A DNA stretch of 64,000 nucleotides from Desulfobacterales bacterium (GTDB taxonomy: Bacteria; Desulfobacterota; Syntrophobacteria; B119-G9): the NCBI GenBank assembly GCA_026983715.1, contig JALSTM010000042.1:14594-78593 (forward strand). The letters are read 5' to 3'. Shown here in pieces: positions 2,766-52,800 of the stretch. Position 1 is the first letter of the stretch. The number at the start of each line of letters is the position of its first letter. The position numbers were made by a program, and so were the translations under genes. The notes beneath the pieces were generated by a model. That model ran no database searches. It saw nothing but the letters and a program-made list of their open reading frames with translations, and was not told where the DNA came from.

Positions 2766-3770
2766 TTAGAATTGCTGGAGAAAACGTAGATCGTTATCGA
2801 AAAAGAGGCGTAAATCGTTTATGCCAAGTTTGAGCATCGCTATCCTTTCGATACCCATGCCAAAAGCGAAACCTGTCACCTCGTCCGGGTCGTATCCCAC
2901 CATCTTGAAAACTTCAGGATCAACCATACCAGAACCAAGAATCTCTAACCACCCCGTGTGCGAACACACCCTGCAGCCGCTACCTTTACAAATGACACAC
3001 TGTATGTCCACCTCCGCACTTGGCTCGGTAAAAGGGAAAAAACTGGGCCGGAACCTCAGCCCAATATCTTCCCCGAACATCTGGTGGACGAATACCGTCA
3101 AAATTCCCTTCAAATCCCCAAAGGAAACATTTTCCCCGACCATCAACCCTTCCACCTGGTGAAACATGGGGGTATGGGTCAAATCTGAATCTCTCCGGTA
3201 AGTCTTTCCAGGAGCGATTATTCTGAGTGGCGGCTTACGTTTCTCCATCACCCTCACCTGGATAGGTGAAGTATGAGTACGCAAGACCACGTTGTCACTA
3301 ATGTAAAAGGTATCCTGCATGTCTCTTGCTGGATGTTCTTTAGGTATGTTCAAAGCCTCGAAATTGTAGTAATCAAGCTCAACCTCAGGCCCCTCAACGA
3401 TGTCAAACCCCAGGCGCTGAAAGATTGCACATATTTCCCTTGATATTTTAGTAATCGGGTGCAAAGTCCCTACAAAGGGCTTTCTTCCGGGTAGGGTGAC
3501 ATCAAGTTTTTCTCTGCGACTTTCAGCTTTCTTGATTTCTCTTAAAGCTGACTCAAGCTCTTTTTCAAGGGTGGCCTTCGTTTCATTAAGCAGCTTTCCG
3601 ATCACCGGGCGCTTTTCTTTCTCTATCTTACCGAGTTCTTTAAAAAAACCCGTAAGAATACCCTTTCTTCCCAGAAACCGTACCCGCAATTCTTCCAACT
3701 GCTGGGACGTTTTTGCCCCGGCTAAAAGTTGGCGTGCCTCGTTAAGGGCTTCCTTGATCTTATTTTCCAT
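2766..3770 (-). CDS. pheS: phenylalanine--tRNA ligase alpha subunit
   Basis: 334 aa. Class II aaRS core motifs are present ([23 protein letters not shown]) and the gene sits immediately upstream of pheT. Confidence 0.95.
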
Positions 3771-12206: not shown

Positions 12207-13061
12207 TTGATAGTGTCATTTCATCCCTGCATAGAAATCGGCATACAATCCATAATCCATGCGCAGCAATTAACAAGGGAACAAGTTGACCTCATAAAGT
12301 GCGCCTCTGCCATAATACTACCCCAGGGTATAACACCGGACATCTATCACTGTTGCAGGAAAACTTGCAAAAATGTCTTCCCTAACTACGATCATCGATT
12401 CCCAGGAGAGGGTAAAGTTGGTGACGCCATACTGTGCAAGCACTTCAGGCTGCCTCATCCGCGAACTGAAGTATACGGACGGGTTGAACATTTCATTGAA
12501 AAGCACTTGAAGAAAGGCCACCCCCTACCCTTCAAGTATCCTTTTGTTCTCAAGGCCAACCAAGGTGGTGAAGGGAACATGGTTTTCCTTATAAAGGGCG
12601 AAAATGAGCTGACAGAAAGGGTTTTCCTCCTAATAGATTCTCAAGAACACGCCAGGTACCCCGGCATGGTAGTACAGGAATACATTAACACGGGAGGGAA
12701 GGACTTAAGAGTAATAGTAATCCACAGGAAAAGGTTTTATTTCTGGCGGATACAGCCAGATCCCATGAAATGGAAAACGAACGTATCGGAAGGTTCTGTA
12801 ATCGATTTTAACGTTGCCCCGGCTACTAGAGAAGCTATCGGTTGGTACCTGGAGCCCTTCCTTAAAAAAACCGGGATAAACCTTGCCGCCATTGACGTAT
12901 TATTCCGAAACGAAAAGCCACTGTTCCTTGAAATTAACTACTATTTTGGACGAAGGGCCCTCGGCGGATCAGATAGATTTTACTCTATTCTCAGGGACGA
13001 AGTGGAGCACTGGCTTACCAGCGTGGTTGGACCACATTGGGCCGAGTACAACGAATGGTGA
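12207..13061 (+). CDS. ATP-grasp domain protein (RimK / glutathione-synthetase-like)
   Basis: 284 aa. ATP-grasp signatures are present: PFVLKANQGGEGNMVFLI, VVQEYINTGGKDLRVIVI and AAIDVLF…FLEINYYFG. The annotated start is TTG; GTG at 12213 is an alternative. Confidence 0.6.
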   Translation: MIVSFHPCIEIGIQSIIHAQQLTREQVDLIKCASAIILPQGITPDIYHCCRKTCKNVFPNYDHRFPGEGKVGDAILCKHFRLPHPRTEVYGRVEHFIEKHLKKGHPLPFKYPFVLKANQGGEGNMVFLIKGENELTERVFLLIDSQEHARYPGMVVQEYINTGGKDLRVIVIHRKRFYFWRIQPDPMKWKTNVSEGSVIDFNVAPATREAIGWYLEPFLKKTGINLAAIDVLFRNEKPLFLEINYYFGRRALGGSDRFYSILRDEVEHWLTSVVGPHWAEYNEW

Positions 13062-13124
13062 AAGTATCTCTGAAGGCTATTTAAAGCCAAGGACAAGATT
13101 GACTTTTGGAACCTCTGATTAATT

Positions 13125-13206
13125 CTCCGTATTGCCAGAGGGTTTCTTGTACGTCATCCGGCTCCTCTGATCTAGTGAGGGGCAGGCTCGATCCGGTATC
13201 CAGCCA
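13125..13206. repeat. intergenic repeat family D, partial copy 1
   Basis: The string ctgattaattctcc…gtcatccggctcctctgatctagtgaggggcaggctcgatccggtatccag has near-identical counterparts at 46253–46340 and, rearranged, at 28271–28330. Confidence 0.6.
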
Positions 13207-13327: not shown

Positions 13328-13561
13328 CCTGAATCCGTGACGGAGTTTTGTGGCTGATTTGTTTAACATGTCCAAGTTGCTGATTATTGGCCATATATCC
13401 AGGGCAGATTATTCTTCATCTTGTCAAGCAATCTTTTTCCGCCCTGCGGGTCGTCGAGGTGCACCGCATCTTCGGCGTCATCGCCCGCCGGACATAGCGT
13501 ACTATAGTCCGCCGGGCTCTTCCTTGCATCTCCGGCCCAGGGGAACGATCACGGATCCAGG
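13328..13561. repeat. MITE-like element bounded by imperfect terminal inverted repeats (family C)
   Basis: The left end is cctgaatccgtgacgg (13328–13343). The right end gaacgatcacggatccagg (13544–13561) is the reverse complement of cctggatccgtgatcgttc. The interior is about 234 bp with no convincing ORF. Related ends occur at 13853–13874 and 33231–33297. Confidence 0.55.
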
Positions 13562-13626
13562 TAATTGCTAGTTCTAGAAATCAAAACTTATCGGAGTTTC
13601 CCCCTATGCAAAACTCCATCTTGAGT

Positions 13627-13694
13627 GAGAAACCGATGAATCGGTTAATGACGTAACTGGTCCTTCGTTTACCCACGGTTAAAACCGTGGGCTA
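13627..13694 (+). repeat. double-hairpin intergenic element (family A/B), copy 1
   Basis: The palindrome gagAAACCGATGAATCGGTT, about 25 nt of spacer, then the hairpin ACCCACGGTTAAAACCGTGGGCTA. The same architecture recurs at 37330–37395 (same orientation) and 51773–51835 (inverted). Confidence 0.7.
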
Positions 13695-13852
13695 GTGAGA
13701 GAACCTTATAGGGTCACGCCGTGAGCTAGTTTCCCCTGTCACCCACTGTTTCATCTGCGGGTAGCCACGGATTCAATCCTGGGTATAGGTTTTTGATTCT
13801 CATTTTTTTTCTACCGATTTTTTGTCTTTTGTTAATACGAGCATCTCTATAA

Positions 13853-13874
13853 CCTGAATCCGTGATCGTTCGCG
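13853..13874. repeat. solo family-C terminal repeat
   Basis: The string cctgaatccgtgatcgttcgcg matches the inverted-repeat ends at 13328, 13544 and 33231/33279. No partner end was found nearby. Confidence 0.45.
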
Positions 13875-13937: not shown

Positions 13938-15074
13938 TTACAGGTGTTGGTTTTTACTTATACGGTGACTGGAAAAATCGCCCAAGAAACTAATAATCTT
14001 CTCAGCCCTCTTTTCCCAGGTGAAATTCTTGGCTCTTTCGTATGCATTTTGAGCCAGGCTTTCTCTAAATGTCGGGTTTCCAATTAGCTTTTTTATCCCG
14101 TTAGCAAGAGCATCACTATCTCCGGCAGGAATAAGCATTGCTTCCTTTTCAGTTACCATCTCTCTTGTGCTGGGAAGATCAGAAGCAACTATTGCAATCT
14201 TTGCAGCCATATATTCCAAAAGCTTGAGAGGTGATGTAAACCTATTGCCTATCAAACGATCACCGGTAGTGGGGAGGATACCAATGGTGGCTTCTCTTAG
14301 TGCTTCACGAACCTGAAAGGGTGGAATATAGCCCGATACGCTGATTTTTCCATCTCTCTCTAGAATCCTGAAAGAAGGCGTTTCCGTGGCTTGAGCATCA
14401 ATATCTCCGATTACTTTTAGCCTTACTCCTTCAAGCTTCAACATTGCTTCCAAGAGGGTTGCCATCCCTTTCCATTCATACCTAGATGACCCAACGTAAT
14501 AGACTTCACTGCAAGGCTTTGAACAGTCTTTCCCCGATAAATCCTCGACCATCGAAACTCCTGAAGGTACAACACAATGCGGAGTAGACTTACCAAGATC
14601 ACAGACAATTACTTCTTTCAAACCGCGACTTATAAAAACCAGACCGTCAACATGCTCAAACACGTATTTTTCCATGCCGCCAATTTTGGGGTTCTTGTGG
14701 GAAAAAAGCTCGTGAACTTCGTATACCAGCTTAAGATCGGCCGGAATCAACCTTAAGAGTGAATAGGCTACTTTGAGATGACGGGTGTACACGACAACCG
14801 ATGGATCAGATGCTGCAATCTCTTTGATGGCTCTAATTAGCTTTCTCATATATCCGCCGGTCCAGGTAAAGGGACCCCACTTTCTCCTTATGGTCCTCAC
14901 GTGAAGCTTTTGAGATCGCTCTAATCCGTAAAAACTATACACATCTCGATCCATACGTGCAGGATAAAAAAATACGGGCACACGTTTACCCAGCGAGCAA
15001 ACGGTATTCAGTACCTGGATGCTCCTTGCATTCTTCGAGGGTAATTCTTCCGGGTAAGGATAGATTACCAGCAT
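13938..15074 (-). CDS. glycosyltransferase family 1 (GT4)
   Basis: 378 aa. The C-terminal GT1 domain is recognisable (…LLEYMAAKIAIVASDLPSTREMV…) and the gene lies in the LPS core cluster. Confidence 0.8.
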   Translation of the reverse strand: MLVIYPYPEELPSKNARSIQVLNTVCSLGKRVPVFFYPARMDRDVYSFYGLERSQKLHVRTIRRKWGPFTWTGGYMRKLIRAIKEIAASDPSVVVYTRHLKVAYSLLRLIPADLKLVYEVHELFSHKNPKIGGMEKYVFEHVDGLVFISRGLKEVIVCDLGKSTPHCVVPSGVSMVEDLSGKDCSKPCSEVYYVGSSRYEWKGMATLLEAMLKLEGVRLKVIGDIDAQATETPSFRILERDGKISVSGYIPPFQVREALREATIGILPTTGDRLIGNRFTSPLKLLEYMAAKIAIVASDLPSTREMVTEKEAMLIPAGDSDALANGIKKLIGNPTFRESLAQNAYERAKNFTWEKRAEKIISFLGDFSSHRISKNQHL

Positions 15075-25324: not shown

Positions 25325-25384
25325 AGGATTTTTGAGTTAATAATAAATGGCATCTGTAATTTGGTCAAATAGAGTGTTGGCTTT

Positions 25385-25444
25385 CACCACAGAGACACAG
25401 AAAACCCAGAGATGATTATTCTTTTTTGTCTGTTGCGAGATACC
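25385..25444. repeat. 60-bp direct repeat, left copy, flanking the GxxExxY gene
   Basis: The string caccacagagacacagaaaacccagagatgattattcttttttgtctgttgcgagatacc is repeated at 26070–26129 with 2 mismatches. It contains the hairpin ttgtctgt…acagacaa. Confidence 0.8.
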
Positions 25445-25535: not shown

Positions 25536-25922
25536 ATGATTACCGACAACATTAATAGACTGACAGGAATAGTTATCGGGTGTGCCATCGAAGTCCACAA
25601 AGCGCTTGGACCAGGATTATTAGAGTCTGCATACGAGCAATGCTTATGTCACGAGTTAAAAATAAGAAAAATACCATTTGAGAGACAAAAAGCTGTACCC
25701 ATAACCTATAAAGGAATAAAACTTGATTGCGGGTACCGTTTGGACATGGTGGTAGCAAACCGGCTCGTACTTGAGATTAAGGCTAGCGAAGAGATTTTAC
25801 CCATACACGAGGCCCAGATTCTAACATATTTGAAGCTAACCGGTATAAAATGCGGACTGATTATTAATTTTAATGTCCCCGTATTAAAAGATGGTATTAA
25901 ACGTTTGAGGCTATTTGATTAG
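25536..25922 (+). CDS. GxxExxY family protein (PD-(D/E)xK nuclease-like)
   Basis: 128 aa. The sequence MITDNINRLTGIVIGCAIEVHKALGPGLLESAYEQCL…LVLEIKA matches the GxxExxY-type family (GLLESAYE) and a PD-(D/E)xK-like core (D-x-V…E-I-K). Confidence 0.75.
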   Translation: MITDNINRLTGIVIGCAIEVHKALGPGLLESAYEQCLCHELKIRKIPFERQKAVPITYKGIKLDCGYRLDMVVANRLVLEIKASEEILPIHEAQILTYLKLTGIKCGLIINFNVPVLKDGIKRLRLFD

Positions 25923-26069
25923 AAAAATTATAGCATGCCACGAAGTGGCATGAGGTTTTTCTCCAATCGGCATCTCCCGATTGGAGAAAAAATAAGCACA
26001 AACTCAGTGTACTCTGTGACTCTGTGGTTAATTTTAAACAAAATACAAAAATCTCTTGACTTCAATTTC

Positions 26070-26129
26070 CACCACAAAGACACAGAAAACCCAGAGATGA
26101 TTATTCTTTTTTGTCTGTCGCGAGATACC
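26070..26129. repeat. 60-bp direct repeat, right copy
   Basis: It matches 25385–25444 (58/60 nt) and abuts or overlaps the 5' end of the MoxR ORF. Confidence 0.8.
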
Positions 26130-33230: not shown

Positions 33231-33297
33231 CCTGAATCCGTGACGAAACTTTATGGCTAATTTGTATAGTATAAGGTGAACGATCACTGATTCAGGC
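33231..33297. repeat. short MITE-like element with family-C inverted-repeat ends
   Basis: The left end is cctgaatccgtgacg (33231–33245). The right end gaacgatcactgattcagg (33279–33297) is the reverse complement of cctgaatcagtgatcgttc. The interior tttatggctaatttgta resembles ttttgtggctgatttgt in the 13328 copy. Confidence 0.55.
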
Positions 33298-34838: not shown

Positions 34839-35453
34839 ATGATTGACCAAAAACTCGATAATACATTACAAGCCATCTCGGAATTCTTTAACCGGTACAA
34901 GGTCGGATACGAAGGGAACAAGGGCTACCGCAAAACCACCGATCTGTTTAAACTACACCGGGCGGTTGAAGATCTTGAGAGATTAGGATTAATTAACAAG
35001 GAACAAACCGTTTTTTGGGATCTTGGCTGTGGAGACGGCAGGGTCAACCTGTTTATGAGTTACCTAGTTAAATTTTCCATCGGAACTGAAATCGAGCCAA
35101 CCATTTTTGAAGAATGCGAAATCCGAAAAACGGAAATAGAAGATGCCTTGAAAAAGAAGCACCTACTTCTTCCTCCTCCGAACATGTTCTTGTACCTGGG
35201 AGATTCACTCTCTAAGGCAACACAGGATGCCGTTTTCAGACATACGGGTTATCTCTTCAACGAAATAGACATATTTTACACGTACATTACCCTCCATGAT
35301 CTTTTTGCCGAACAAATTATAAACAATGCAAAATCCGGAGCACTTTATCTGGTATATGGATTTAGCAAGATTCTGCCGTCTTACGACGGGATGGAACTGG
35401 TTAACCCCGACGTGGGAAAGCAAAATATCATGACTCTCTACAGGAAATTATAA
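34839..35453 (+). CDS. class I SAM-dependent methyltransferase
   Basis: 204 aa. Motif I (VFWDLGCGDGRVNL) indicates a Rossmann-type methyltransferase fold. The substrate is unknown. Confidence 0.6.
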   Translation: MIDQKLDNTLQAISEFFNRYKVGYEGNKGYRKTTDLFKLHRAVEDLERLGLINKEQTVFWDLGCGDGRVNLFMSYLVKFSIGTEIEPTIFEECEIRKTEIEDALKKKHLLLPPPNMFLYLGDSLSKATQDAVFRHTGYLFNEIDIFYTYITLHDLFAEQIINNAKSGALYLVYGFSKILPSYDGMELVNPDVGKQNIMTLYRKL

Positions 35454-35482
35454 GGTCTTCCCTGTTGTTAAATGAGTTTGTT

Positions 35483-35505
35483 CCCACGGTTAAAGCCGTG
35501 AGCTA
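35483..35505. repeat. family-A hairpin, partial variant
   Basis: The string cccacggttaaagccgtgagcta is a variant of the family-A hairpin (cccacggttaaaaccgtgggcta). Confidence 0.5.
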
Positions 35506-35675
35506 ATTGACGATGGGGAAGATCGAAGCAGCGCAATCTCAAAGAGTTTGATATTCCAAGGACATTGCTTCGCAATCTGCCTTTCGCACTCACCTCGTAA
35601 TGTCAAAATCCCACAAATATTTAAGGAATCGTTTACTAGTGGCCAAAGCACGCCCATCTTCTAAATCTTCCGCCA

Positions 35676-36727: not shown

Positions 36728-37153
36728 TTAATCTACCTTTTCTATAATCAGGTGCAAGATAAACGTTTCATCCCCTAAGGGATGATTAAAATCTGCCCAG
36801 ATTAAATCATTTTCCACCTTCTTCACCCTGAAAGGGTGTATCCTATTTTCGTCATCCCTGTAGTGGAAAAAATCTCCGGGGCTGAGCGAGCTTTCTATGT
36901 CTAACTTATCAATTGGTATAGGAATGATCTTTTTTTCGTCGTAGGGACCAAAGATATCGCTTCCCTTTATTTCCATTACAACTGATTCTCCAGGAGTGCG
37001 ACCCAGAACCGCATCTTCAATAACTGGCACTGCTTCCCCTTTTCCAACTTCAAAAGAAGCCTTAAACGATTTCATGTCCCTAAGGCTCCCAGTGGAGCCC
37101 TGGAGATAGATACTGTATTCGACGGTAACCTTTGATCCCACGGTAACTTTCAT
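36728..37153 (-). CDS. FKBP-type peptidyl-prolyl cis-trans isomerase (SlyD-like)
   Basis: 141 aa. The sequence MKVTVGSKVTVEYSIYLQ…FEVGKGEAVPVIEDAVLGRTPGE…HPLGDETFILHLIIEKV shows an FKBP fold with an insert-in-flap-like segment. Confidence 0.8.
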   Translation of the reverse strand: MKVTVGSKVTVEYSIYLQGSTGSLRDMKSFKASFEVGKGEAVPVIEDAVLGRTPGESVVMEIKGSDIFGPYDEKKIIPIPIDKLDIESSLSPGDFFHYRDDENRIHPFRVKKVENDLIWADFNHPLGDETFILHLIIEKVD

Positions 37154-37329: not shown

Positions 37330-37395
37330 GAGAAACCGATGAATCGGTTCTATGTTGGGCCTTGCCTTAATACCCACGGTTGAAACCGTGGGCTA
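37330..37395 (+). repeat. double-hairpin intergenic element (family A/B), copy 2
   Basis: The palindrome gagaaaccgatgaatcggtt, about 21 nt of spacer, then tacccacggttgaaaccgtgggcta. It is upstream of nadE and of the divergent FKBP gene. Confidence 0.7.
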
Positions 37396-37563
37396 CGCTG
37401 TGATCGTAACTCAGGGTCATGAGCCAGCTAGAGCTTGGCTTCATCCGAGATTGATGAGATGAAAAGAAGAAGCATATAAAAACACTTCTTGAACAATTAT
37501 TCCCCCTTATGCTATTTTGCAAGGGATTTAGCAAAGATATAAATTAAAAAACCAGGAGTTTCC

Positions 37564-39303
37564 ATGCGCCCCATAAGGATCGCCCTTGCACAACTAAACA
37601 TGGTGCTGGCGAACTTTGAGACAAACAGGGAAAAGATACTAAGTGCAATCAAGGAGGCAAGCGAGAAGGATGCAGATATCATAGCCTTCCCGGAACTTGC
37701 CATCTGTGGATATCCCCCCGAAGACCTTCTTTTGCAGTTGGAATTCTCTGAGAAGTCCATGAGGACTCTTCGGGAAATAGCTGAACAATCATCCGATCTT
37801 CCCATCATCATACTGCTGGGATACCCGGAACGAAAAGACGACACTTATAATAGTTGTGCATTAATCTTCAAAGGAGAAATCTACCATTCTTACCAGAAGA
37901 TATTTCTCCCGAATTACGGGGTCTTCGACGAAAAACGATACTTTTCGCCTGGTTCTCTTATCCCGGTGTACGAAACAGAGGATTACAAGTTTGGTGTTGG
38001 CATCTGCGAAGATATCTGGCAACCAGAGGGCCCGATTATCGTACAGGCTTTTGCCGGCGATTGTGAACTTGTGATAAACATAAACGCTTCACCTTATCAC
38101 AGGGGGAAACGCGAGTACAGGGAAAAAATGGTCGCAACGCGCGCAGCGGACAACTGCTTGCCCGTGGCATTTTTAAACCTCGTGGGAGGCCAGGATGAGC
38201 TTGTCTTCGACGGGCAATCTTTTGTATGTAGCCCCGAAGGAGAGATACTTGCAAGAGCGGGAGCCTTTTCAGAAGAAATCCTGTACGTTGACCTTGACCT
38301 TGATGAAGTAATGCGATGCAGGCTACAGGACCCAAGGCGTAGGGATTTCAAGTATCGTCGTCTGGAGAATTGTTACAATAACGTACACACGGTCAGGATT
38401 CCGGCCAGGTTGAGGAAGAAAGAATCAGCGATTGACTCCAGGCTTGTCTCTCCCCTTGAAGACGAAAACGAGGTTTGGGAAGCCCTTGTTTGCGGAGTTC
38501 GCGATTACGTGGAAAAAAACGGGTTTAAATCGGTAGTCATTGGATTATCCGGTGGAATCGATTCTGCGCTGGTGGCCACTATTGCTACCGATGCCCTTGG
38601 ACCAGACAGGGTACACACCGTGTTTCTGCCGTCCCGATTTACTTCTGATGAGAGCTACCGGGATGCGAAGAAGCTTGCAGAAAACCTAGGAGTTCACTTC
38701 ACTGTTATAGAAATTGAAAGGCTTTTTCATGCTTACCTGGAAGAACTTAAACCTCATTTTGCCGGGAAACCCTTTGATGTAACTGAAGAAAACCTTCAGG
38801 CCCGGATTCGGGGTAACATTCTCATGGCACTTTCGAACAAGTTCGGTCACCTTGTTCTTTCCACCGGAAACAAGAGCGAAATGAGCGTGGGGTATGCAAC
38901 TCTCTACGGGGACATGGTGGGTGGCTTTGCCGTTTTAAAGGATGTACCCAAGACCCTAGTGTGGGCACTAGCAAGATGGAGAAACAGGAAAGCATCCCGG
39001 GAGTTAATTCCTAACGAGATTATTACTCGTCCTCCCACGGCTGAACTTCGCGAAAATCAGAAAGATACAGATACGCTACCACCGTATGAAATTCTGGATC
39101 AGATTTTATCCCTTTACATAGAAAAGGAGGAATCGGTAGAGGAAGTGGCCGCAAGGACCGGGTTCGACAGGGAACTGGTGGCGAAAGTTGCCCGAATGGT
39201 GGACAGGGCGGAATATAAAAGACGTCAGGCTCCACCCGGAATCAAAATCACTCATAGAGCATTCGGAAAAGAACGAAGAATGCCAATCACTAGAGGCCAG
39301 TGA
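37564..39303 (+). CDS. nadE: glutamine-dependent NAD+ synthetase
   Basis: 579 aa. An N-terminal CN-hydrolase (nitrilase) domain (IALAQLNMVLANFETN…AFPELAICGY) is followed by a C-terminal NAD synthetase domain with the PP-loop VVIGLSGGIDSALV. Confidence 0.93.
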   Translation: MRPIRIALAQLNMVLANFETNREKILSAIKEASEKDADIIAFPELAICGYPPEDLLLQLEFSEKSMRTLREIAEQSSDLPIIILLGYPERKDDTYNSCALIFKGEIYHSYQKIFLPNYGVFDEKRYFSPGSLIPVYETEDYKFGVGICEDIWQPEGPIIVQAFAGDCELVININASPYHRGKREYREKMVATRAADNCLPVAFLNLVGGQDELVFDGQSFVCSPEGEILARAGAFSEEILYVDLDLDEVMRCRLQDPRRRDFKYRRLENCYNNVHTVRIPARLRKKESAIDSRLVSPLEDENEVWEALVCGVRDYVEKNGFKSVVIGLSGGIDSALVATIATDALGPDRVHTVFLPSRFTSDESYRDAKKLAENLGVHFTVIEIERLFHAYLEELKPHFAGKPFDVTEENLQARIRGNILMALSNKFGHLVLSTGNKSEMSVGYATLYGDMVGGFAVLKDVPKTLVWALARWRNRKASRELIPNEIITRPPTAELRENQKDTDTLPPYEILDQILSLYIEKEESVEEVAARTGFDRELVAKVARMVDRAEYKRRQAPPGIKITHRAFGKERRMPITRGQ

Positions 39304-39312
39304 TCGCGAGAC

Positions 39313-40629
39313 ATGGAACCGGCCATACTGTTCTATAATCTTTTGATCTCACCACTAACCTTGCTTTCCACACCTCTCAGGTTTCTTTTTAAAAAAGAAA
39401 TATCCCGGAGTAGTACTCTCTCGTACTGGCCATCCAGGCTCGGGGTCTACCCGGAACATTTTGTTGGCAAGTTACGGACCTCAAAGCACCCCGTAATTTG
39501 GATTCAAGCAGTATCTGTGGGAGAAGTTGGAGTTGCAAGACTCTTAATCAAGGAGCTTGAAAAACTACTTCCTCAGTCGACCATAATACTCACGGTTACC
39601 ACCCCTCATGGTCTTTCCGTGGCTTCGTCGCAGGTACCAGACTCGGCCATTATACTTCCATTCCCCCTGGATCTACCAACCGTAGTTTCAGAAGCTTTAA
39701 GCGTGATACGTCCAGATATATACATAAGCATTGAAACGGAAATCTGGCCAAATTTAATTTCTTACCTCCACAGACTAAAGATTCCAGTAATTCTATTAAA
39801 TGGTAGAATTTCATCCAAATCTTTCGGTAGCTACAGGGCAACTCGGTGGCTGTGGAAACCAGTATTGAAAAAGTTTACCCACGTATCCGTGATTACAAGT
39901 AAACACGCGGATAGAATCATTTACCTCGGGGCGGATCCCAGCCGAGTTTCCGTATCAGGAAACATCAAACTCGCTCAAATAACGGACAACGTGGATGAAA
40001 AGAAACCGGAAAGATGGAGAAAAGTTCTCAAACTATCGGACAAAACCCCTGTGGTCGTTTTTGGCAGCCTAAGAGGTGCTGAAAATGCCTGGATACCCGG
40101 GATTTTTACCAGACTTAAAGAAAAGAACCCCGAGGTTATCGGAATTTTCGCCCCCAGGCATCTCAAGAGAATACCAGAGCTTGAAAAAAGTCTACAGCAA
40201 AATGGGATAAAATTCCAGAGCCTCTCATCAATCTTAGATTCAGGAGAAGAACGCACCACGCCGGCAATTGTCGTGGATGTTATAGGTGAACTGGCCAGCC
40301 TCTACAGCATAGCGACTGTTACTTTCTGCGGCGGCAGCCTCGTTGCTGTGGGAGGTCATAACATCCTTGAACCAGTTTCATGGGGAAAACCAGTATTTTA
40401 CGGTAGACACATGGATAATTTCTCCGACATAAAAGATACCGTGGAGGATCTCGGATTCGGTTACGAGGTAAAAGACAGAACCGAACTCTGCGAAAAACTC
40501 GGACACGCTCTATCTGACACGTCTTCTGAGACTTTCCAGAAGACAGAGTCAGGATCCAAAAATTTTGACTTTTATGCTCCCCTTAAAAACCAGGTCGAAA
40601 TTGTTCTGGATATTCTTACTCGAAAATAG
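39313..40629 (+). CDS. waaA: 3-deoxy-D-manno-octulosonic acid (Kdo) transferase
   Basis: 438 aa. A KdtA/WaaA N-terminal membrane anchor and the motifs IWIQAVSVGEVGVARLLIKEL and a GT30 C-domain are present. Confidence 0.88.
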   Translation: MEPAILFYNLLISPLTLLSTPLRFLFKKEISRSSTLSYWPSRLGVYPEHFVGKLRTSKHPVIWIQAVSVGEVGVARLLIKELEKLLPQSTIILTVTTPHGLSVASSQVPDSAIILPFPLDLPTVVSEALSVIRPDIYISIETEIWPNLISYLHRLKIPVILLNGRISSKSFGSYRATRWLWKPVLKKFTHVSVITSKHADRIIYLGADPSRVSVSGNIKLAQITDNVDEKKPERWRKVLKLSDKTPVVVFGSLRGAENAWIPGIFTRLKEKNPEVIGIFAPRHLKRIPELEKSLQQNGIKFQSLSSILDSGEERTTPAIVVDVIGELASLYSIATVTFCGGSLVAVGGHNILEPVSWGKPVFYGRHMDNFSDIKDTVEDLGFGYEVKDRTELCEKLGHALSDTSSETFQKTESGSKNFDFYAPLKNQVEIVLDILTRK

Positions 40630-40912
40630 CATCGAGGATTTTTTTCCAGAGTTCAGGTTCAATACCAACGGGCGGCATTTTTTTCTTGAAGATAGCCTTG
40701 GAAAGTTCCAGGTCATCCATGGAGAGAAGTTTTTCCACAGATATCAGTTCATTGTAGCTAAAAGCATCAAGATGTCTATCCAGGAACTTGTTTAAAACCA
40801 TCTCTAGTTCCAGGCTCGAACGTCGGGCCGCATGAAAACGAATCTTTTTTTTAATTTTCTCAGCATCCTTTGCCATATTGATTTTAAGCCCACGACCGAA
40901 ACCGTGGGCCAT
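40616..40912 (-). CDS. SdhE/YgfY-like flavinylation-factor family protein
   Basis: The motifs RFHAARRSSLELEMVLNKFLDRHLDAFSYNELISVEKLLSMDDLEL fit the SdhE R-x-x-W…RRG…E-x-D pattern. The true start may be the internal MAKDAEK at 40876. Confidence 0.55.
   Translation of the reverse strand: MAHGFGRGLKINMAKDAEKIKKKIRFHAARRSSLELEMVLNKFLDRHLDAFSYNELISVEKLLSMDDLELSKAIFKKKMPPVGIEPELWKKILDAIFE
40888..40909. repeat. family-A-like hairpin (degenerate)
   Basis: gcccacgaccgaaaccgtgggc has a GCCCACG / CGTGGGC stem with an 8-nt loop, followed about 40 nt later by a second palindrome ggttccgtaacgaacc. Confidence 0.4.
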
Positions 40913-46227: not shown

Positions 46228-46252
46228 AACACTTTTCTCCAGGACTTCTCGA

Positions 46253-46450
46253 CTGATTAATTCCTCAAATAGCCAAGGATCTCACATACGTCATCCTGGC
46301 CCCCTGCTCTAGTCGGGGGTAGGCTCGATCCGGCATCCAGGATTTCGTATCCACTGGATTCCCGTTTCCGCGAGAATGATAAGTCCTTTCAAGACAATCT
46401 AAAACTTTTCTTCGCCAGAAGGCGAGACGTTTCACAACATCCCCGAAACA
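46253..46450. repeat. intergenic repeat family D, copy 3 (longest)
   Basis: The string ctgattaattcctc…gtcatcctggccccctgctctagtcgggggtaggctcgatccggcatccag…ggattcccgtttccgcgagaatgataagtcc…gtttcacaacatccccgaaac matches 13125–13206 in its first half and 28271–28403 in its second half. Confidence 0.6.
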
Positions 46451-48794: not shown

Positions 48795-50465
48795 ATGAAC
48801 GGGAAAACTAAAAGTAAAAAAAGTCGCATCGGGGATATACTGGTCGAACTAGGGTACCTGTCACAGGACCAGTTGCAAAAGGCCTTGCAGGAATCGAAGC
48901 GAACAGGCGTAATGCTTGGTGAAGTCCTTACGAGGCTCGGATGGATTACCGAGGAACAGCTCAACACTGCACTTGGGATACAGTCTGGTGCGCAGTTGCT
49001 TGACACGAAAAGAGTAAGCGTTGATAGTGGTGTGTTGAAAATGGTTCCTCACGAGTTTGCCAGGGAACACGAACTTTTACCGTTCGGTCTTCAGGAAAAT
49101 TCTCTTCAGGTAGCGCTTTCCAACCCCTTTGACGTTGTAGCCAGGGACAAGCTAAAATCACTGACCGGGAAAAAAATTATACCATACATCGCCCCACGGG
49201 AATGGATCACAGGTTCTATTGAGTACTACTACAAAACTGCAGCACACATAGACGAAGAAATTGAAGAAATAGTAAGAAGGGATCTGGCGGGAGATTCCGA
49301 TGCCACAGCCGAAGGCAACATAACGCGATTGGTTGACCTTATCATAGCCAAGGGTCTGAGCCTGGGTGCAAGCGACATACACATAGACCCGGATGAACAA
49401 CTGGTCAGAATATACTTTCGGATGGACGGGGTATTACATCAGAAGTATCTCTTGCCGAAGAAATTCCACTCCGGCCTGGTTACTAGGATTAAGGTCATGA
49501 GTGGCATCCCCCTTGGGGATGCTCACGTACCTCATGACGGTCGAGTTCAGTACGATGCCAAGGTACGAAAGATAGACATCAGGGTTTCCACATTTCCATC
49601 ACACCTTGGTGAGATGGTCGTAATGCGTTTATTAATCAAAGCCGAGGCCGTAGGAAGTTTCGAACGATTAGGGATGACTAAAAAAACAATAGACCAGGTA
49701 ACCTCGGCAATATACAGGCCTCACGGCCTGGTGCTAATCACCGGACCCACCGGGTCCGGAAAAACAACTACCGTTTACACTGTTTTGCTAAAAATTAACC
49801 GATCTGAAATCAATATCATGGCCATTGAGGATCCGATAGAATACGTGATTCCGACTGTAAGGCAGAGTGCCGTTAATCCTAAGGCTGGATTTACCTTTGC
49901 CAACGCACTTCGTGCTGCTCTAAGGCAGGATCCTGATGTGATCATGGTGGGAGAAGTCAGGGACAAGGAAACGGCGGAGTTGGCTTTAAGGGCTTCCATT
50001 ACCGGTCACCTCGTTATCTCCACCCTACATGCCAATGAAGCCGCCGGTGCGGTCCCAAGACTTCTTGACATGGGTGTTCTACCCACAGTTCTGGCATCAA
50101 GCCTGGTGCTTGTCGTGGCACAAAGGTTAGTAAGACGTCTTTGCCCCGATTGCATAGAACTTTATTCACCATCGGCAGAAGAGAAAGAGGTTTTCCTGTC
50201 CAATGGTCTCGAAGCTCCTTCAGAACTTGCAAGAACAACCGGTTGTGACCTGTGTCACAATACGGGTTTTAAGGGTCGAATAGGTATATTTGAGATAATG
50301 ATGGTCAGCAAGGAAATAGAAGAACTGATCATAGGAAACGCTTCACGTAGCAAAATAGAAGAAGTGGCAGTCAGCCAGGGAATGGAAAAAATGTTCGTGG
50401 ACGGGTTAAGAAAGGTGGCCCAAAAACTTACTTCCTTAAGCGAAATCCGGAGGGTAGCAGTATAA
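48795..50465 (+). CDS. GspE/PilB-family secretion ATPase with N-terminal MshEN-type domain
   Basis: 556 aa. A Walker A box (LITGPTGSGKTT), Asp and His boxes, and a tetracysteine motif (CPDC…CDLC) are present. The N-terminus carries two tandem 24-aa motifs, RIGDILVELGYLSQDQLQKALQES and MLGEVLTRLGWITEEQLNTALGIQ. Confidence 0.9.
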   Translation: MNGKTKSKKSRIGDILVELGYLSQDQLQKALQESKRTGVMLGEVLTRLGWITEEQLNTALGIQSGAQLLDTKRVSVDSGVLKMVPHEFAREHELLPFGLQENSLQVALSNPFDVVARDKLKSLTGKKIIPYIAPREWITGSIEYYYKTAAHIDEEIEEIVRRDLAGDSDATAEGNITRLVDLIIAKGLSLGASDIHIDPDEQLVRIYFRMDGVLHQKYLLPKKFHSGLVTRIKVMSGIPLGDAHVPHDGRVQYDAKVRKIDIRVSTFPSHLGEMVVMRLLIKAEAVGSFERLGMTKKTIDQVTSAIYRPHGLVLITGPTGSGKTTTVYTVLLKINRSEINIMAIEDPIEYVIPTVRQSAVNPKAGFTFANALRAALRQDPDVIMVGEVRDKETAELALRASITGHLVISTLHANEAAGAVPRLLDMGVLPTVLASSLVLVVAQRLVRRLCPDCIELYSPSAEEKEVFLSNGLEAPSELARTTGCDLCHNTGFKGRIGIFEIMMVSKEIEELIIGNASRSKIEEVAVSQGMEKMFVDGLRKVAQKLTSLSEIRRVAV

Positions 50466-51685
50466 TGCCTCTCTTCAGATACACTGCGCTGGACGGTCAT
50501 GGAAAGATTGTAAAGGGCACAATGGTTGCTCTCACAGAGTCTGATGCTGAAAAGCGACTTGGTGAGCGAGATCTCACGCTAATCCAGGCAAAAAAACTCT
50601 CAGAACGATTCTCTGCGCTGTCGCATATTTTCAAGAGACAAGTTCGCGATAGAGACCTTATCGAGTTCTACCAGAGACTTTCCGAGTCGCTGGAAGTAGG
50701 TTTACCGCTACTTTCTACCCTGGAAGAAAACATAAAGCTTATTGGATCGAAGAGACTTGCGAGAAGCGTTGAAAGGGTAAAGCTTGACGTAGAAAATGGG
50801 CTTACACTTTCACAGGCCATGAGCCAGCAATCTGACGTGTTCGATACCCTTCAGATTGGGATCGTGGCAATGGGTGAACAGTCCGGTACTCTTCCGGAAG
50901 CTCTCAAGCATCTGGCTGATTTCCTTGAATGGAAGTACCAACAGAAATCCTTGTTAAAACGAGCATCCATATACCCTGCGTTTATTTTTGTGACGGTGCT
51001 GGTTGTGGTAGCCATTTGGGTTGGTTACGTTTTGCCACAAGTTGGTGGGTTCCTGGAAAGTATGCAAATTGAGCTCCCTACTATAACCATGGCTGTAATT
51101 ACCATGAGCAGATGGATCCAAGGACACTGGATACATATCATTGCAGGACTTACCGGGATAATCATTGGTACCGTGATTTTCAAAAAATCAAAGTGGGGTG
51201 GGGTCAAATATGACATGTTAATGTTAAAATTGCCCGTGGTGGGAAAAGTAATACTTAACTCATCCGTCAGTAGAATAGGGCACTATTTCTCTGTCATGCT
51301 AGAAGCAGGAATGAACCTAGTCACAATATTTGAATTGATGACTGATGGCATTATAGGAAATAAGTACATTGAAAAACAGCTCGAAAGGGTTTTTGATCAG
51401 GTGAAACAGGGCAAACAGTTTTTTGAAGCATTTAAGAAGGAGAAGACCTTCCCAGATCTCTTTCTCGGTGCAATCAAAACAGGGGAACAGGCTGGTAAAC
51501 TGGCCGAGACTTTCAAAAGACTCGGAGTTTACTACGACAAGGAAGTCAAAAGATCTGTGAAATTTCTTGTTGCAGCCTTTGAACCTGCCATCATTATTTT
51601 TCTCGGCCTTTTTTTCGGCATCATTATCCTTGCAATACTGTCCCCCCTTTACGACGTAATTGGCCAGATAAGCAAGGCTTACTAA
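50465..51685 (+). CDS. GspF/PilC-family inner-membrane platform protein
   Basis: 406 aa. Two T2SF domains with three transmembrane segments are present. The start codon overlaps the gspE stop. Confidence 0.9.
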   Translation: MPLFRYTALDGHGKIVKGTMVALTESDAEKRLGERDLTLIQAKKLSERFSALSHIFKRQVRDRDLIEFYQRLSESLEVGLPLLSTLEENIKLIGSKRLARSVERVKLDVENGLTLSQAMSQQSDVFDTLQIGIVAMGEQSGTLPEALKHLADFLEWKYQQKSLLKRASIYPAFIFVTVLVVVAIWVGYVLPQVGGFLESMQIELPTITMAVITMSRWIQGHWIHIIAGLTGIIIGTVIFKKSKWGGVKYDMLMLKLPVVGKVILNSSVSRIGHYFSVMLEAGMNLVTIFELMTDGIIGNKYIEKQLERVFDQVKQGKQFFEAFKKEKTFPDLFLGAIKTGEQAGKLAETFKRLGVYYDKEVKRSVKFLVAAFEPAIIIFLGLFFGIIILAILSPLYDVIGQISKAY

Positions 51686-51772
51686 AACCCTTCCCCTTGC
51701 CCCACGGCTTTAATGGTGCGCAGAAACACCAGTCCACTCTTTGCTGTCTTTTTTTGGGGGGCACAGGAATTT

Positions 51773-51835
51773 TAGCCCACGTTTCAACCGTGGGTAAAAA
51801 GGCAAAGTTTATCACTGGACCGATTCATCGGTTTT
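51773..51835 (-). repeat. double-hairpin intergenic element (family A/B), copy 3, inverted orientation
   Basis: On the plus strand the order is tagcccacgtttcaaccgtgggta, about 22 nt, then accgattcatcggtt. The reverse complement reproduces the B–spacer–A order of copies 1 and 2. Confidence 0.7.
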
Positions 51836-52068
51836 TCATGTGTCTCTCCTAAGTTGACAATAGAACCCCAGAAAACGCAAAAGGGACTCATCTTTTGCTG
51901 CCGTGAGATACTAACAGATAAGAATATCAACATCACGTATGGCTCTCTGCGCCCCATTGAAATCTCGAAATCGGTGTTCACGCAATTTTTTTTCATAATA
52001 ACGCATAAATATAAGCTATAATAATATAAATACCCTCTGATTAGTTATTCATTTTTGATGATAAAGCC

Positions 52069-52800
52069 ATGACAAAGCTACCTGGCAACCTATGGTGGGA
52101 CGGTGACCGCCTTGCGAGGATAAAGCCTCCTGTTGCAGCGGCGCATCTTAAAATTTTGTACGAAGACAACCACGTTCTGTCTGTATTTAAGCCCGCCGGA
52201 CTGCTTTCCCAGGGACCGGGGGAAAAGCAAAATACCCTGGTGGATATTGCAAAAGAATGGATAAAGATTAAATATGAGAAGCCGGGAAACGTGTATCTCG
52301 GGTTAGTTCACCGGTTGGATCGCCCAGTTAGCGGTGTGGTTATCCTGGCAAAAACATCCAAAGCCGCAAGTCGCCTATCAGCCCAGATGAGAGAGAAACA
52401 GATTCACAAGGAATACCTGGCAGTTGTACACGGAATACCCAAAAACAAAAAAGGAACCGTTGAGGGTTACTTGAAAAAGAACGAAAAAGATCAAAAAATG
52501 CTAATAATCGATTCCGAGTATACGAATTCACTTTATTCCAGGCTTGAATACAAGCTACTAGATTCGAAAGGCTATAAGAGCCTTCTTCTAGTTTTTCCTT
52601 TTTCAGGGAGAAGACACCAAATAAGGGTCCTTCTTGCCCATGTGGGGCTTCCCATCTGGGGGGACTGCAAATACGGTAAAGGTCCAAAATTAAGGAGTAC
52701 TATTGGTTTGCTAGCTTACAGGATGAGCTTTTTACATCCAACGACCTTTTCACGAATCACTGTGGAAGCCCCTCTTCCTCCAAACTGGCCGTGGCCTTAG
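52069..52800 (+). CDS. RluA-family pseudouridine synthase
   Basis: 243 aa. The catalytic motif HRLDRPVSGVVILAKT is present, and the core is RluA/RluC/RluD-like. Confidence 0.8.
   Translation: MTKLPGNLWWDGDRLARIKPPVAAAHLKILYEDNHVLSVFKPAGLLSQGPGEKQNTLVDIAKEWIKIKYEKPGNVYLGLVHRLDRPVSGVVILAKTSKAASRLSAQMREKQIHKEYLAVVHGIPKNKKGTVEGYLKKNEKDQKMLIIDSEYTNSLYSRLEYKLLDSKGYKSLLLVFPFSGRRHQIRVLLAHVGLPIWGDCKYGKGPKLRSTIGLLAYRMSFLHPTTFSRITVEAPLPPNWPWP

Follow-up and report, generated by a model that had tools for sequence, protein, structure and literature searches.

A 64,000-nt stretch of contig JALSTM010000042.1 from a Desulfobacterales bacterium, referred to here as the window, contains a recurrent element built from two unlike hairpins. 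Three full modules of 66-68 nt each are present, two on the forward strand and one on the reverse strand (Table 1). In each, hairpin A (AAACCGA-TGAA-TCGGTT) is separated by 23-25 nt from hairpin B (CCCACGGT-T(G/A)AA-ACCGTGGG), which is followed by the tail CTA. Copy 1 lies in the gap between the convergent genes at 12207-13061(+) and 13938-15074(-), copy 2 between the divergent genes 36728-37153(-) and nadE (37564-39303(+)), and copy 3 between a gspF-like gene (50465-51685(+)) and a pseudouridine synthase gene (52069-52800(+)). By the open reading frame (ORF) map, the gaps are convergent, divergent and co-directional, respectively; the co-directional copy is antisense to its neighbors, and two of the three copies lie 3' of genes.

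Full copies had been placed at these three positions in the original prediction, and all of them are far above chance. With up to three mismatches allowed, the A palindrome gives 10 strand-matches in the window against 0.66 expected, and the B palindrome gives 7 against 0.01. A covariance model built from 18 copies of the module, R1, scores 72.9 bits for copy 1, 69.2 bits for copy 2 and 58.7 bits for copy 3, in which A has a single mismatch and the 3' arm of B has lost 1 nt. Folded as single-stranded DNA, every full copy gives both hairpins on either strand, with z values from -3.6 to -4.5 (-3.97 for copy 1).

The spacers are related in sequence (..TGCCTT..TA), copies 2 and 3 are 78% alike across 65 nt, and the likeness among the copies drops abruptly beyond GAGAAACCG...GGGCTA. 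The related spacers and the alignment of copies 2 and 3 over 65 nt indicate that the complete 66-68 nt module is the duplicated unit. No duplicated flanks are visible at the three full copies. Together with the solo B hairpins described below, the modules are short extragenic stem-loop palindromes repeated between genes, the defining property of repetitive extragenic palindromes (REPs). They do not have the make-up of a classical miniature inverted-repeat transposable element (MITE): the solo modules contain two unlike internal palindromes, and neither terminal inverted repeats nor a target-site duplication is visible.

Inverted modules flank a Y1 HUH transposase gene in other genomes

The pattern AACCGATGAATCGG-N(10-40)-CCCACGG was searched exactly in one reference genome per species, which returned 19 loci (sister-genome, metagenome and reference loci are given below as contigs with L numbers). 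Five of these (L002, L004, L013, L017 and L020) were dropped as chance matches within coding sequence. At ~14 loci (15 matches), hairpin B forms a complete palindrome; its loop-closing pair varies in a compensatory manner (t-a, c-g or a-t), its loop is TRAA, and the spacer measures 24-30 nt. These loci belong to Ignavibacteria, Melioribacter, one Bacteroidetes metagenome-assembled genome (MAG), unclassified MAGs and small contigs that were binned as Desulfobacterales. Scanning with R1 reveals tandem module arrays in L005 and L019, and abutting inverted module pairs without a gene in L010 and L015, where B'-A' is followed directly by A-B and the second A has a compensatory T-A closing pair. Contigs frequently terminate at the module (L001, L003, L010, L016 and L019), as would be expected for a repeat that is dispersed.

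In L005, L019, L008 and L007, a small gene is situated between inverted modules, and in L005, L019 and L007 its TGA stop codon forms the first three bases of the A loop. The gene product is a 145-residue Y1 HUH transposase (PF01797, Y1_Tnp; 104 bits). It scores 80.7 bits with the NCBIfam model transpos_IS200 (NF033573, cutoff 55) and so qualifies as IS200-type. Proteins of this kind are ~145-150 residues long, carry the motifs DH[IV]H, WQ and YIxNQKEHH and end in a conserved C-terminal tail; Asp-55, His-56, His-58, Trp-96, Gln-97, Tyr-116, Gln-120 and His-124 are invariant in their alignment (A3). Judged by these motifs, the flanked protein matches TnpA_Y1 subclass 1.2 as listed in Table 1 of Quentin et al. 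2018 (PMC6006769), for which Y---Q--HH and a length of ~148 residues are characteristic. Subclass 1.2 was reported there to lack REPs and insertion sequence (IS) properties and to occur at low copy number, 1.7 per genome, with copies 36% identical.

A protein search returned more than 1,800 clusters of the Y1 family, many of them on short contigs. For an unbiased test, 80 metagenome loci were picked by protein similarity alone (alignment A3) and then scanned with R1; their identity classes refer to the L008 protein. In the class of 55% identity or more (38 loci), a (+) module directly follows the gene at 34 loci, a (-) module directly precedes it at 34, and both are present at 31. The corresponding numbers are 3, 4 and 2 for the 12 loci with 48-54% identity, and 1, 2 and 1 for the 30 loci with 40-47% identity. 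In the closest group, the (+) module begins between -5 and +25 nt past the gene end (one at +64), and the (-) module ends no more than ~40 nt from the start codon. The architecture is [B'-spacer-A'] - tnpA_Y1 - [A-spacer-B]: the two modules are inverted, with A nearest the gene and B farther out.

A single Y1 HUH gene with inverted copies on each side, as in the REP systems known as REPtrons, is thus found in other genomes at 31 of the 38 closest loci. The two ends of an IS200/IS605 element differ and lack terminal inverted repeats, each holding one subterminal hairpin, both on one strand, whereas the flanks here are mirror-image double-hairpin modules. The window contains three gene-less solo modules, along with decayed B hairpins, of the gene-flanking unit seen elsewhere.

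Two side observations concern these loci. The Y1 gene of an Ignavibacteriaceae MAG (L007, 6619-7086) has an in-frame stop near codon 14, directly after MSHSLVKVHIHYI; it is possibly a pseudogene whose flanking hairpins are still intact. Some modules also contain a nested palindromic insertion within a hairpin loop, for example CCTGCCTTGGCGGCAGACAGG in the B loop (Table 1), as though hairpin loops were the target of a second, small palindromic element.

Covariation of the stems points to a DNA element

Base-pair counts were made on 101 modules from the protein-anchored loci. Pairing is kept in 95.8% of the cells, and changes on both sides occur at 13 of 15 pairs. There are 216 double-change cells compared with 55 in shuffles; none of 500 shuffles reaches the observed value, and slid controls collapse. 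G·U accounts for only 4 of 1440 cells. Covariation confined to Watson-Crick pairs would follow from a need for both DNA strands, or a DNA hairpin, to pair; RNA helices do not typically behave in this way. Comparison of the copies for covariation, which had been proposed as a means to separate RNA-level from DNA-level conservation, therefore disfavors an RNA.

The loops are specific to one strand. The A loop is TGAA in 59 modules and TAAA in 35 (94/101), and the B loop is TAAA in 39, TGAA in 37 and TTAA in 16 (92/101); these motifs always lie on the strand that reads away from the Y1 gene. The conserved spacing of the two palindromes, first noticed in the window, holds in these independent modules from other loci, where spacer lengths range from 18 to 30 nt and peak at 24-25. 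The foot of B is always CCCA...TGGG, followed by [C/T]T[R], and the opposite strand reads YAR-CCCA. In the window the bottom strand 5' of B is CTAG, GTAG and TTAG in copies 1, 2 and 3 (GTAG-CCCACGG in copy 2), the final positions resembling the GTAG guide of classical REPs and the first letter being variable. B arms are identical in 38% of within-locus pairs and in 8.4% of between-locus pairs, which from sequence comparison suggests local homogenization or cognate specificity.

Because the flanking modules are mirror images, a gene-spanning transcript could carry just one of them in sense form. When the whole window was searched at Rfam gathering thresholds, only a tRNA was found and no other structured RNA family reached threshold. 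In E-value mode, the copies gave a sub-threshold match to Acido-Lenti-1 and noise. No promoter-like or terminator-like sites framing the modules were detected in scans.

Several specific candidates were considered and rejected. An intrinsic terminator does not fit, as there is no T-run after B, the shape is wrong, and terminator scans are blank at the modules. Integron attC sites form one long imperfect hairpin with a GTTRRRY core; the module has two separate self-complementary hairpins and no R'/R'' cores. A small peptide could begin at ATG AAT CGG.. in A, which opens 14-codon frames to the B loop in copies 2 and 3, but in copy 1 the frame closes after 6 codons, and it is not kept in other genomes. 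The letters of a hammerhead-like core (CUGAUGA...GAAA) vary (CCGAUGA in A; UAAA in copy 1). A NAD+ riboswitch preceding nadE was dismissed since a single copy precedes that gene, the modules are inconsistent in orientation, and Rfam gives no match.

Solo and decayed B hairpins

In addition to the full modules, the window contains isolated hairpins (Table 1). Those at 35483-35505, 40888-40909 and 13711-13730 had been described as degenerate copies of hairpin A; on inspection they are B-type hairpins or half-hairpins. R1 gives just 26 bits for the first of them, over 35439-35509, and there is a weak covariance-model match of 21.4 bits at 13665-13729(-). The hairpin at 51700-51722 is 80% complementary to the copy at 35476-35500. 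Every copy in the window is intergenic by the ORF map, as originally claimed, if the Sdh5-like gene at 40616-40912 begins at an internal ATG. This start is adopted because the orthologue on the sister contig L101 has 89 residues.

Table 1. Coordinates of modules, hairpins and other repeats (window positions unless an L number is given)
Feature	Position	Strand	Details
Full module, copy 1	13627-13694	+	A 13631-13646 (AACCGA-TGAA-TCGGTT); 25-nt spacer; B 13672-13691 (CCCACGGT-TAAA-ACCGTGGG); tail CTA
Full module, copy 2	37330-37395	+	A 37334-37349; 23-nt spacer; B 37373-37392 (loop TGAA); tail CTA(C)
Full module, copy 3	51773-51836	-	A 51818-51833; 23-nt spacer; B 51776-51794; tail CTA = 51773-51775
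Solo B-type hairpin	35483-35505	+	CCCACGGTTAAAGCCGTGAG + CTA; no A partner; 88% to copy 1
Solo degenerate B-type hairpin	40887-40911		GCCCACGACCGAAACCGTGGGC; 72% alignment; DNA fold z = -4.7
Decayed half B-type hairpin	13711-13730	+	..CACGCCGTGAGCTAG; beside copy 1
Further decayed B-like hairpin	~13741-13764		Near copy 1
Decayed B-type hairpin	51700-51722	+	CCCCACGGCTTTAATGGTGCGC; tail to tail with copy 3 (~50 nt away, opposite orientation)
Modules with nested loop insertion, L021	2898-2994
Modules with nested loop insertion, L025	2621-2720, 3155-3251
Modules with nested loop insertion, L052	609-706, 716-810
Modules with nested loop insertion, L056	2892-2988
Acido-Lenti-1 matches, L079	2911-2956, 3493-3538	-, +	Around gene 3001-3423
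Acido-Lenti-1 matches, L097	2596-2641, 3188-3233	-, +	Flanking Y1 gene
Acido-Lenti-1 pair, L097	1677-1722, 1740-1785	-, +	Gene-less, head to head
Second repeat family	13328-13343, 13546-13561, 13853-13868, 33231-33246, 33281-33296	+, -, +, +, -	CCTGAATCCGTGAYSR

The module in sister genomes

The lineage of the window can be compared with sister genomes. The next-best NadE homologues are 91, 88, 77 and then 64% identical, and the identity for GspF falls to 47%, in entries with Thermodesulfobacteriota names. A syntenic contig of 10.7 kb from the sister with 88% NadE identity (L101) lacks the module at 37330 as well as the B hairpins at 35483 and 40889. The gap 5' of nadE is 410 nt in the window, compared with 195 and 163 nt in L101 and L102, both without the module. 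In the L101 gap corresponding to 35483 no B-type hairpin or module was detected, although the alignment there is poor, and the gap corresponding to 40887-40911 is 18 nt with no hairpin. Two more sister contigs, of 21 kb and 14 kb, contain no module (sister total ~46 kb). Other assemblies of the same species break at or contain the module (L001 and L104).

Two of the gaps have further features. The junction of the gspF-like and pseudouridine synthase genes is variable: in L105 (11221-15385) it holds a MazE/PIN toxin-antitoxin pair and a gene with an OmpA domain, and in the window (51685-52069) just the module and decayed hairpins. Directly 5' of nadE, ~90 nt (AAAACTGTTCTTGAACAA...CTTATGCTATTTTGCAAGGGATTTAGCAAAGATAT) are conserved in the window (37500-37560), L101 (2910-3000) and L102, and the rest of the intergenic region is not. 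These ~90 nt are probably the nadE promoter or leader.

Other repeats in the window

A second repeat family, CCTGAATCCGTGAYSR, has 5 copies in the window against 0.15 expected (Table 1). An inverted pair at 13543-13565 and 13849-13871 (23 nt, 91% complementary) surrounds module copy 1, and the pair 33231/33296 delimits a mini-element of ~66 nt with terminal inverted repeats. These repeats may be a separate MITE-like family.

A direct repeat of 85-90 nt, starting with CTGATTAATTC, is found at 13117-13203 and 46252-46340, with a 65-nt core that is 78% identical. Its copies lie ~25-60 nt 3' of the (+) gene stops at 13061 and 46227, and they contain an internal hairpin with compensatory changes (CCTCTGATCTAGTGAGGGG compared with CCCCTGCTCTAGTCGGGGG) and give no Rfam hit. 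It could be an element of a 3' untranslated region (UTR), a small RNA (sRNA) or another repeat. Finally, a 63-nt direct repeat (25382-25444 and 26067-26129; 95% identical, 685 nt apart) flanks the ORF at 25536-25922.

Distant relatives and Acido-Lenti-1

Loci whose Y1 protein is 42-47% identical mostly give no match with R1. By eye, the plan of these distant loci is unchanged: past the stop codon comes a short A-like hairpin, then, ~22-25 nt on, a B-like one, in many cases followed by a third hairpin, and upstream of the gene the order is mirrored. The A-like hairpins are, for example, GACCC-TTTCA-GGGT or GCCCC-TTCG-GGGC, and the B-like hairpins, of the form CCCA...TGGG-CTR, are CCCAGGG...CCCTGGG-CTGA or CCCACGGC-TTGC-GCCGTGGG-CTG. 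A model-free comparison of the 160-nt flanks gives a median local score of 58 in inverted orientation, 25 in direct orientation and 15.6 for shuffled sequence, with scores of at least 40 at 18 of 28 loci, which confirms that the flanks repeat each other in inverted orientation. A plasmid search yielded just two distant homologues, in Persicobacter and Bernardetia. On the plasmid of Bernardetia (NZ_CP147018.1, a cultured member of the Bacteroidota), tnpA is 38% identical and has inverted hairpin repeats on each side, of unrelated sequence.

The window hairpin B with its CUA resembles the first hairpin of Acido-Lenti-1 (RF01687), with 23.8 bits and an E-value of 0.0008 over 37373-37404. This is below the Rfam gathering score of 37, and the hairpin is therefore not a member of Acido-Lenti-1 by the Rfam rule; neither the window nor the Ignavibacteria-type loci contain any match at gathering level. 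Above the threshold, with 37.5-57.8 bits, Acido-Lenti-1 is found in 8 of 20 distant subclass-1.2 loci, among L070-L097. All gene-adjacent matches are (+) after or (-) before the Y1 gene, at the position of B (for example in L079, L097 and L092), and L097 has an additional pair without a gene (Table 1). Acido-Lenti-1 was proposed as a non-coding RNA and rated 'probably RNA' (Weinberg et al. 2010, PMC2864571). Given these positions, Acido-Lenti-1 might be a repetitive DNA element instead of an sRNA.

Interpretation

The module is most likely a REP-like repeat that acts as DNA and serves as the recognition module of a Y1 HUH transposase of subclass 1.2, by which, judging from related enzymes, it would be mobilized. 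Three readings had been offered in the original prediction, namely a small structured RNA, a REP/MITE-like element and paired operator sites. Of these, the REP/MITE-like reading finds support in modules inverted around a Y1 HUH gene in most close relatives, in gene-less solos, arrays and doublets, and in the absence of the element from syntenic sisters.

A mechanism can be drawn by analogy with IS608 TnpA and with the TnpA_REP proteins of E. coli, S. maltophilia and Marinomonas. In single-stranded DNA, for example at a replication fork, the strand A(TRAA)...B(TRAA)-YT would fold into both hairpins. The Y1 enzyme would bind both of them and would cut and rejoin near the foot of B, for which the CCCA/TGGG foot and the YT tail (YAR-CCCA on the bottom strand, GTAG-like) are likely guide or cleavage determinants. 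Such cutting and rejoining would copy the 66-68 nt module into new intergenic sites. TnpA_REP recognizes the single-stranded REP and not its complement, cuts at CT or CA beside the hairpin, and uses the GTAG foot as guide (PMC8266576). Secondary effects on the host, such as hairpins at mRNA 3' ends, are possible.

Several points weigh against a REP-like DNA repeat of this kind. We know of no biochemical activity for subclass 1.2, and the Y1 protein scores as IS200 and not as a REP-associated tyrosine transposase (RAYT), reaching 32.4 bits with REP_Tyr_transpos (NF047646) against a cutoff of 80. The canonical 5' GT[AG]G tag is just partly present, its first G being variable. The alignment used for covariation was fitted to the structure of the model and leans towards pairing. 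There are just three full copies in ~74 kb, the 10 kb beyond the left end of the window adding no module. No Y1 gene was found in the 64-kb window by tblastn or in those 10 kb, and a cognate enzyme in the source genome is therefore assumed. In the comparison with the sisters, whose intergenic DNA is too diverged to align, no insertion boundary or target site could be defined.

Instead of being copied as units, the modules might be dead ends of ordinary IS200/IS605-type elements, left after deletion of the transposase gene. The flanked gene does pass the NCBIfam IS200/IS605 model, the modules are the terminal structures of a gene-containing unit, and several decayed B hairpins adjoin full copies. 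We nevertheless regard this as unlikely. Sharp shared boundaries and related spacers point to duplication of the entire unit, tblastn detects no trace of Y1 coding sequence beside any copy in the window, and the ends of IS200/IS605 are not inverted repeats whereas the module flanks are. The gene-less head-to-head doublets (L010 and L015) and the arrays (L005 and L019) resemble the organization of bacterial interspersed mosaic elements (BIMEs) and REP doublets forming hairpins (REPINs). The low copy number and divergence of subclass 1.2, and its lack of IS properties (PMC6006769), also argue against IS remnants. An origin as fragments of a known IS terminal repeat had been named in advance as an outcome that would count against the prediction, and in spirit this is partly what was found: an IS200-like gene has the module as its terminal unit on each side, but its subclass has been described as not IS-like and without REPs (PMC6006769).

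A structured or cis-acting RNA, such as a 3'-UTR stabilizer or a terminator, would have the hairpins act in the transcript, as Rfam assumes for Acido-Lenti-1. The resemblance of B and CUA to the first hairpin of that family, its published rating as 'probably RNA', the strand-specific loop sequence and the sense transcription expected for a module 3' of the Y1 gene are all compatible with this. The nearly exclusive Watson-Crick covariation is not, and of two mirror-image modules one is antisense to any transcript that spans the gene. The window copies stand in every relation to their neighbors, convergent, divergent and co-directional on the antisense strand, with no promoter-like or terminator-like frame and no U-run after B, and an RNA is very unlikely. 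That the two palindromes are paired operators for a dimeric regulator binding double-stranded DNA is extremely improbable, even though they are perfect and set at a fixed distance and one of the copies falls within a divergent promoter region. Conservation extends to pairing and a strand-specific loop and not to a fixed half-site: the stems change in a compensatory manner, unlike the evolution of half-sites, and the centers of the palindromes are conserved asymmetric tetraloops. Moreover, two of the three copies are downstream of genes, and the element is tied to an HUH enzyme that acts on single-stranded hairpins.

If the module is indeed a REP-like DNA repeat, a wider conclusion seems fairly likely: subclass 1.2 enzymes and bipartite A/B modules (with C in some clades) would form an unrecognized REPtron-like system spanning several phyla, Ignavibacteriota, Bacteroidota, Acidobacteria-like soil bacteria and the lineage of the window, and Acido-Lenti-1 would represent its distal DNA hairpins and not an RNA gene. 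The conservation of the hairpins across phyla would then imply either frequent horizontal transfer of gene and hairpins or a strongly constrained protein-DNA code. The module would provide a concrete candidate DNA substrate for an HUH Y1 subclass that was classified without REPs or IS-like ends, and the biochemistry of subclass 1.2 would become testable with short oligonucleotides containing two hairpins, a fixed spacer, TRAA loops and the CCCA/TGGG-YT foot. An orphan Rfam 'sRNA' family would be moved to a mobile-DNA context, which would explain its repetitive motif. The module would also explain the recurrent contig breaks in Ignavibacteria-type MAGs, and the source genome would be annotated with REP-like repeat units rather than regulatory RNAs or operators.

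Comparison with known systems

REP-like repeats tied to Y1 transposases are already a known kind of element. New are the bipartite A/B module, its tie to subclass 1.2, the near-identity of the hairpins across phyla and the link to Acido-Lenti-1; a full-text literature search of incomplete coverage, so that a prior description is possible, returned no paper making these links.

The TIRYT or 'TIRtron' systems (Di Nocera et al. 2013, PMC3733652) likewise combine tyrosine HUH genes with inverted repeats, some with two palindromes, and with small repeat families. Their enzymes are mostly of subclass 2.1 according to Quentin et al., are longer and have helix-turn-helix tails, and their common motif, GGGGWSAS, does not occur here. 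IS200/IS605 ends and MITEs derived from them (the left-end and right-end hairpins of IS608, and palindrome-associated transposable elements, PATEs) share a Y1 HUH enzyme, subterminal hairpins recognized on one strand and non-autonomous derivatives with hairpins. In contrast to the modules, a single hairpin is present at each of their ends, both on one strand, with no inverted repetition between the ends, and the elements are multi-copy, near-identical and often accompanied by tnpB; none of this is seen here.

With subclass 1.2 as described (PMC6006769), the flanked proteins share motifs, a length of ~145-150 residues and the C-terminal tail, but most of the members sampled here carry inverted double-hairpin modules. 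The taxonomic distribution is also wider than Cyanobacteria and Bacteroidetes and takes in Ignavibacteria, Acidobacteria-like soil contigs and the lineage of the window. Hairpin B and the first hairpin of Acido-Lenti-1 agree in shape and in their conserved letters (CC.A....-UGA.-....U.GG-CUA). The family differs in spanning B and a third hairpin, C, without the A hairpin, and it was proposed as RNA whereas the present evidence points to DNA.

The closest parallel is with the REPs, BIMEs and REPINs and their RAYTs, the REPtrons of E. coli, Pseudomonas and Stenotrophomonas (PMC2817692, PMC3116915, PMC8266576). Both comprise short palindromes dispersed between genes, alone, in inverted doublets or in clusters, one Y1 HUH gene with inverted copies on each side, compensatory variation that preserves the hairpins, and lineage-specific presence. 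A short conserved tag at the foot of the hairpin is shared in part: on the bottom strand in the window it is NTAG-CCCA, and exactly GTAG in copy 2. The enzyme here is of class 1 (Y---Q--HH, IS200-like) and not a class 2 RAYT (Y---NP), and the unit is bipartite, with the unlike hairpins A and B ~24 nt apart in place of one REP. In addition, A and B each have a conserved TRAA tetraloop, GTAG varies at its first G, and the hairpins are near-identical across distant phyla, whereas REPs are usually species-specific.

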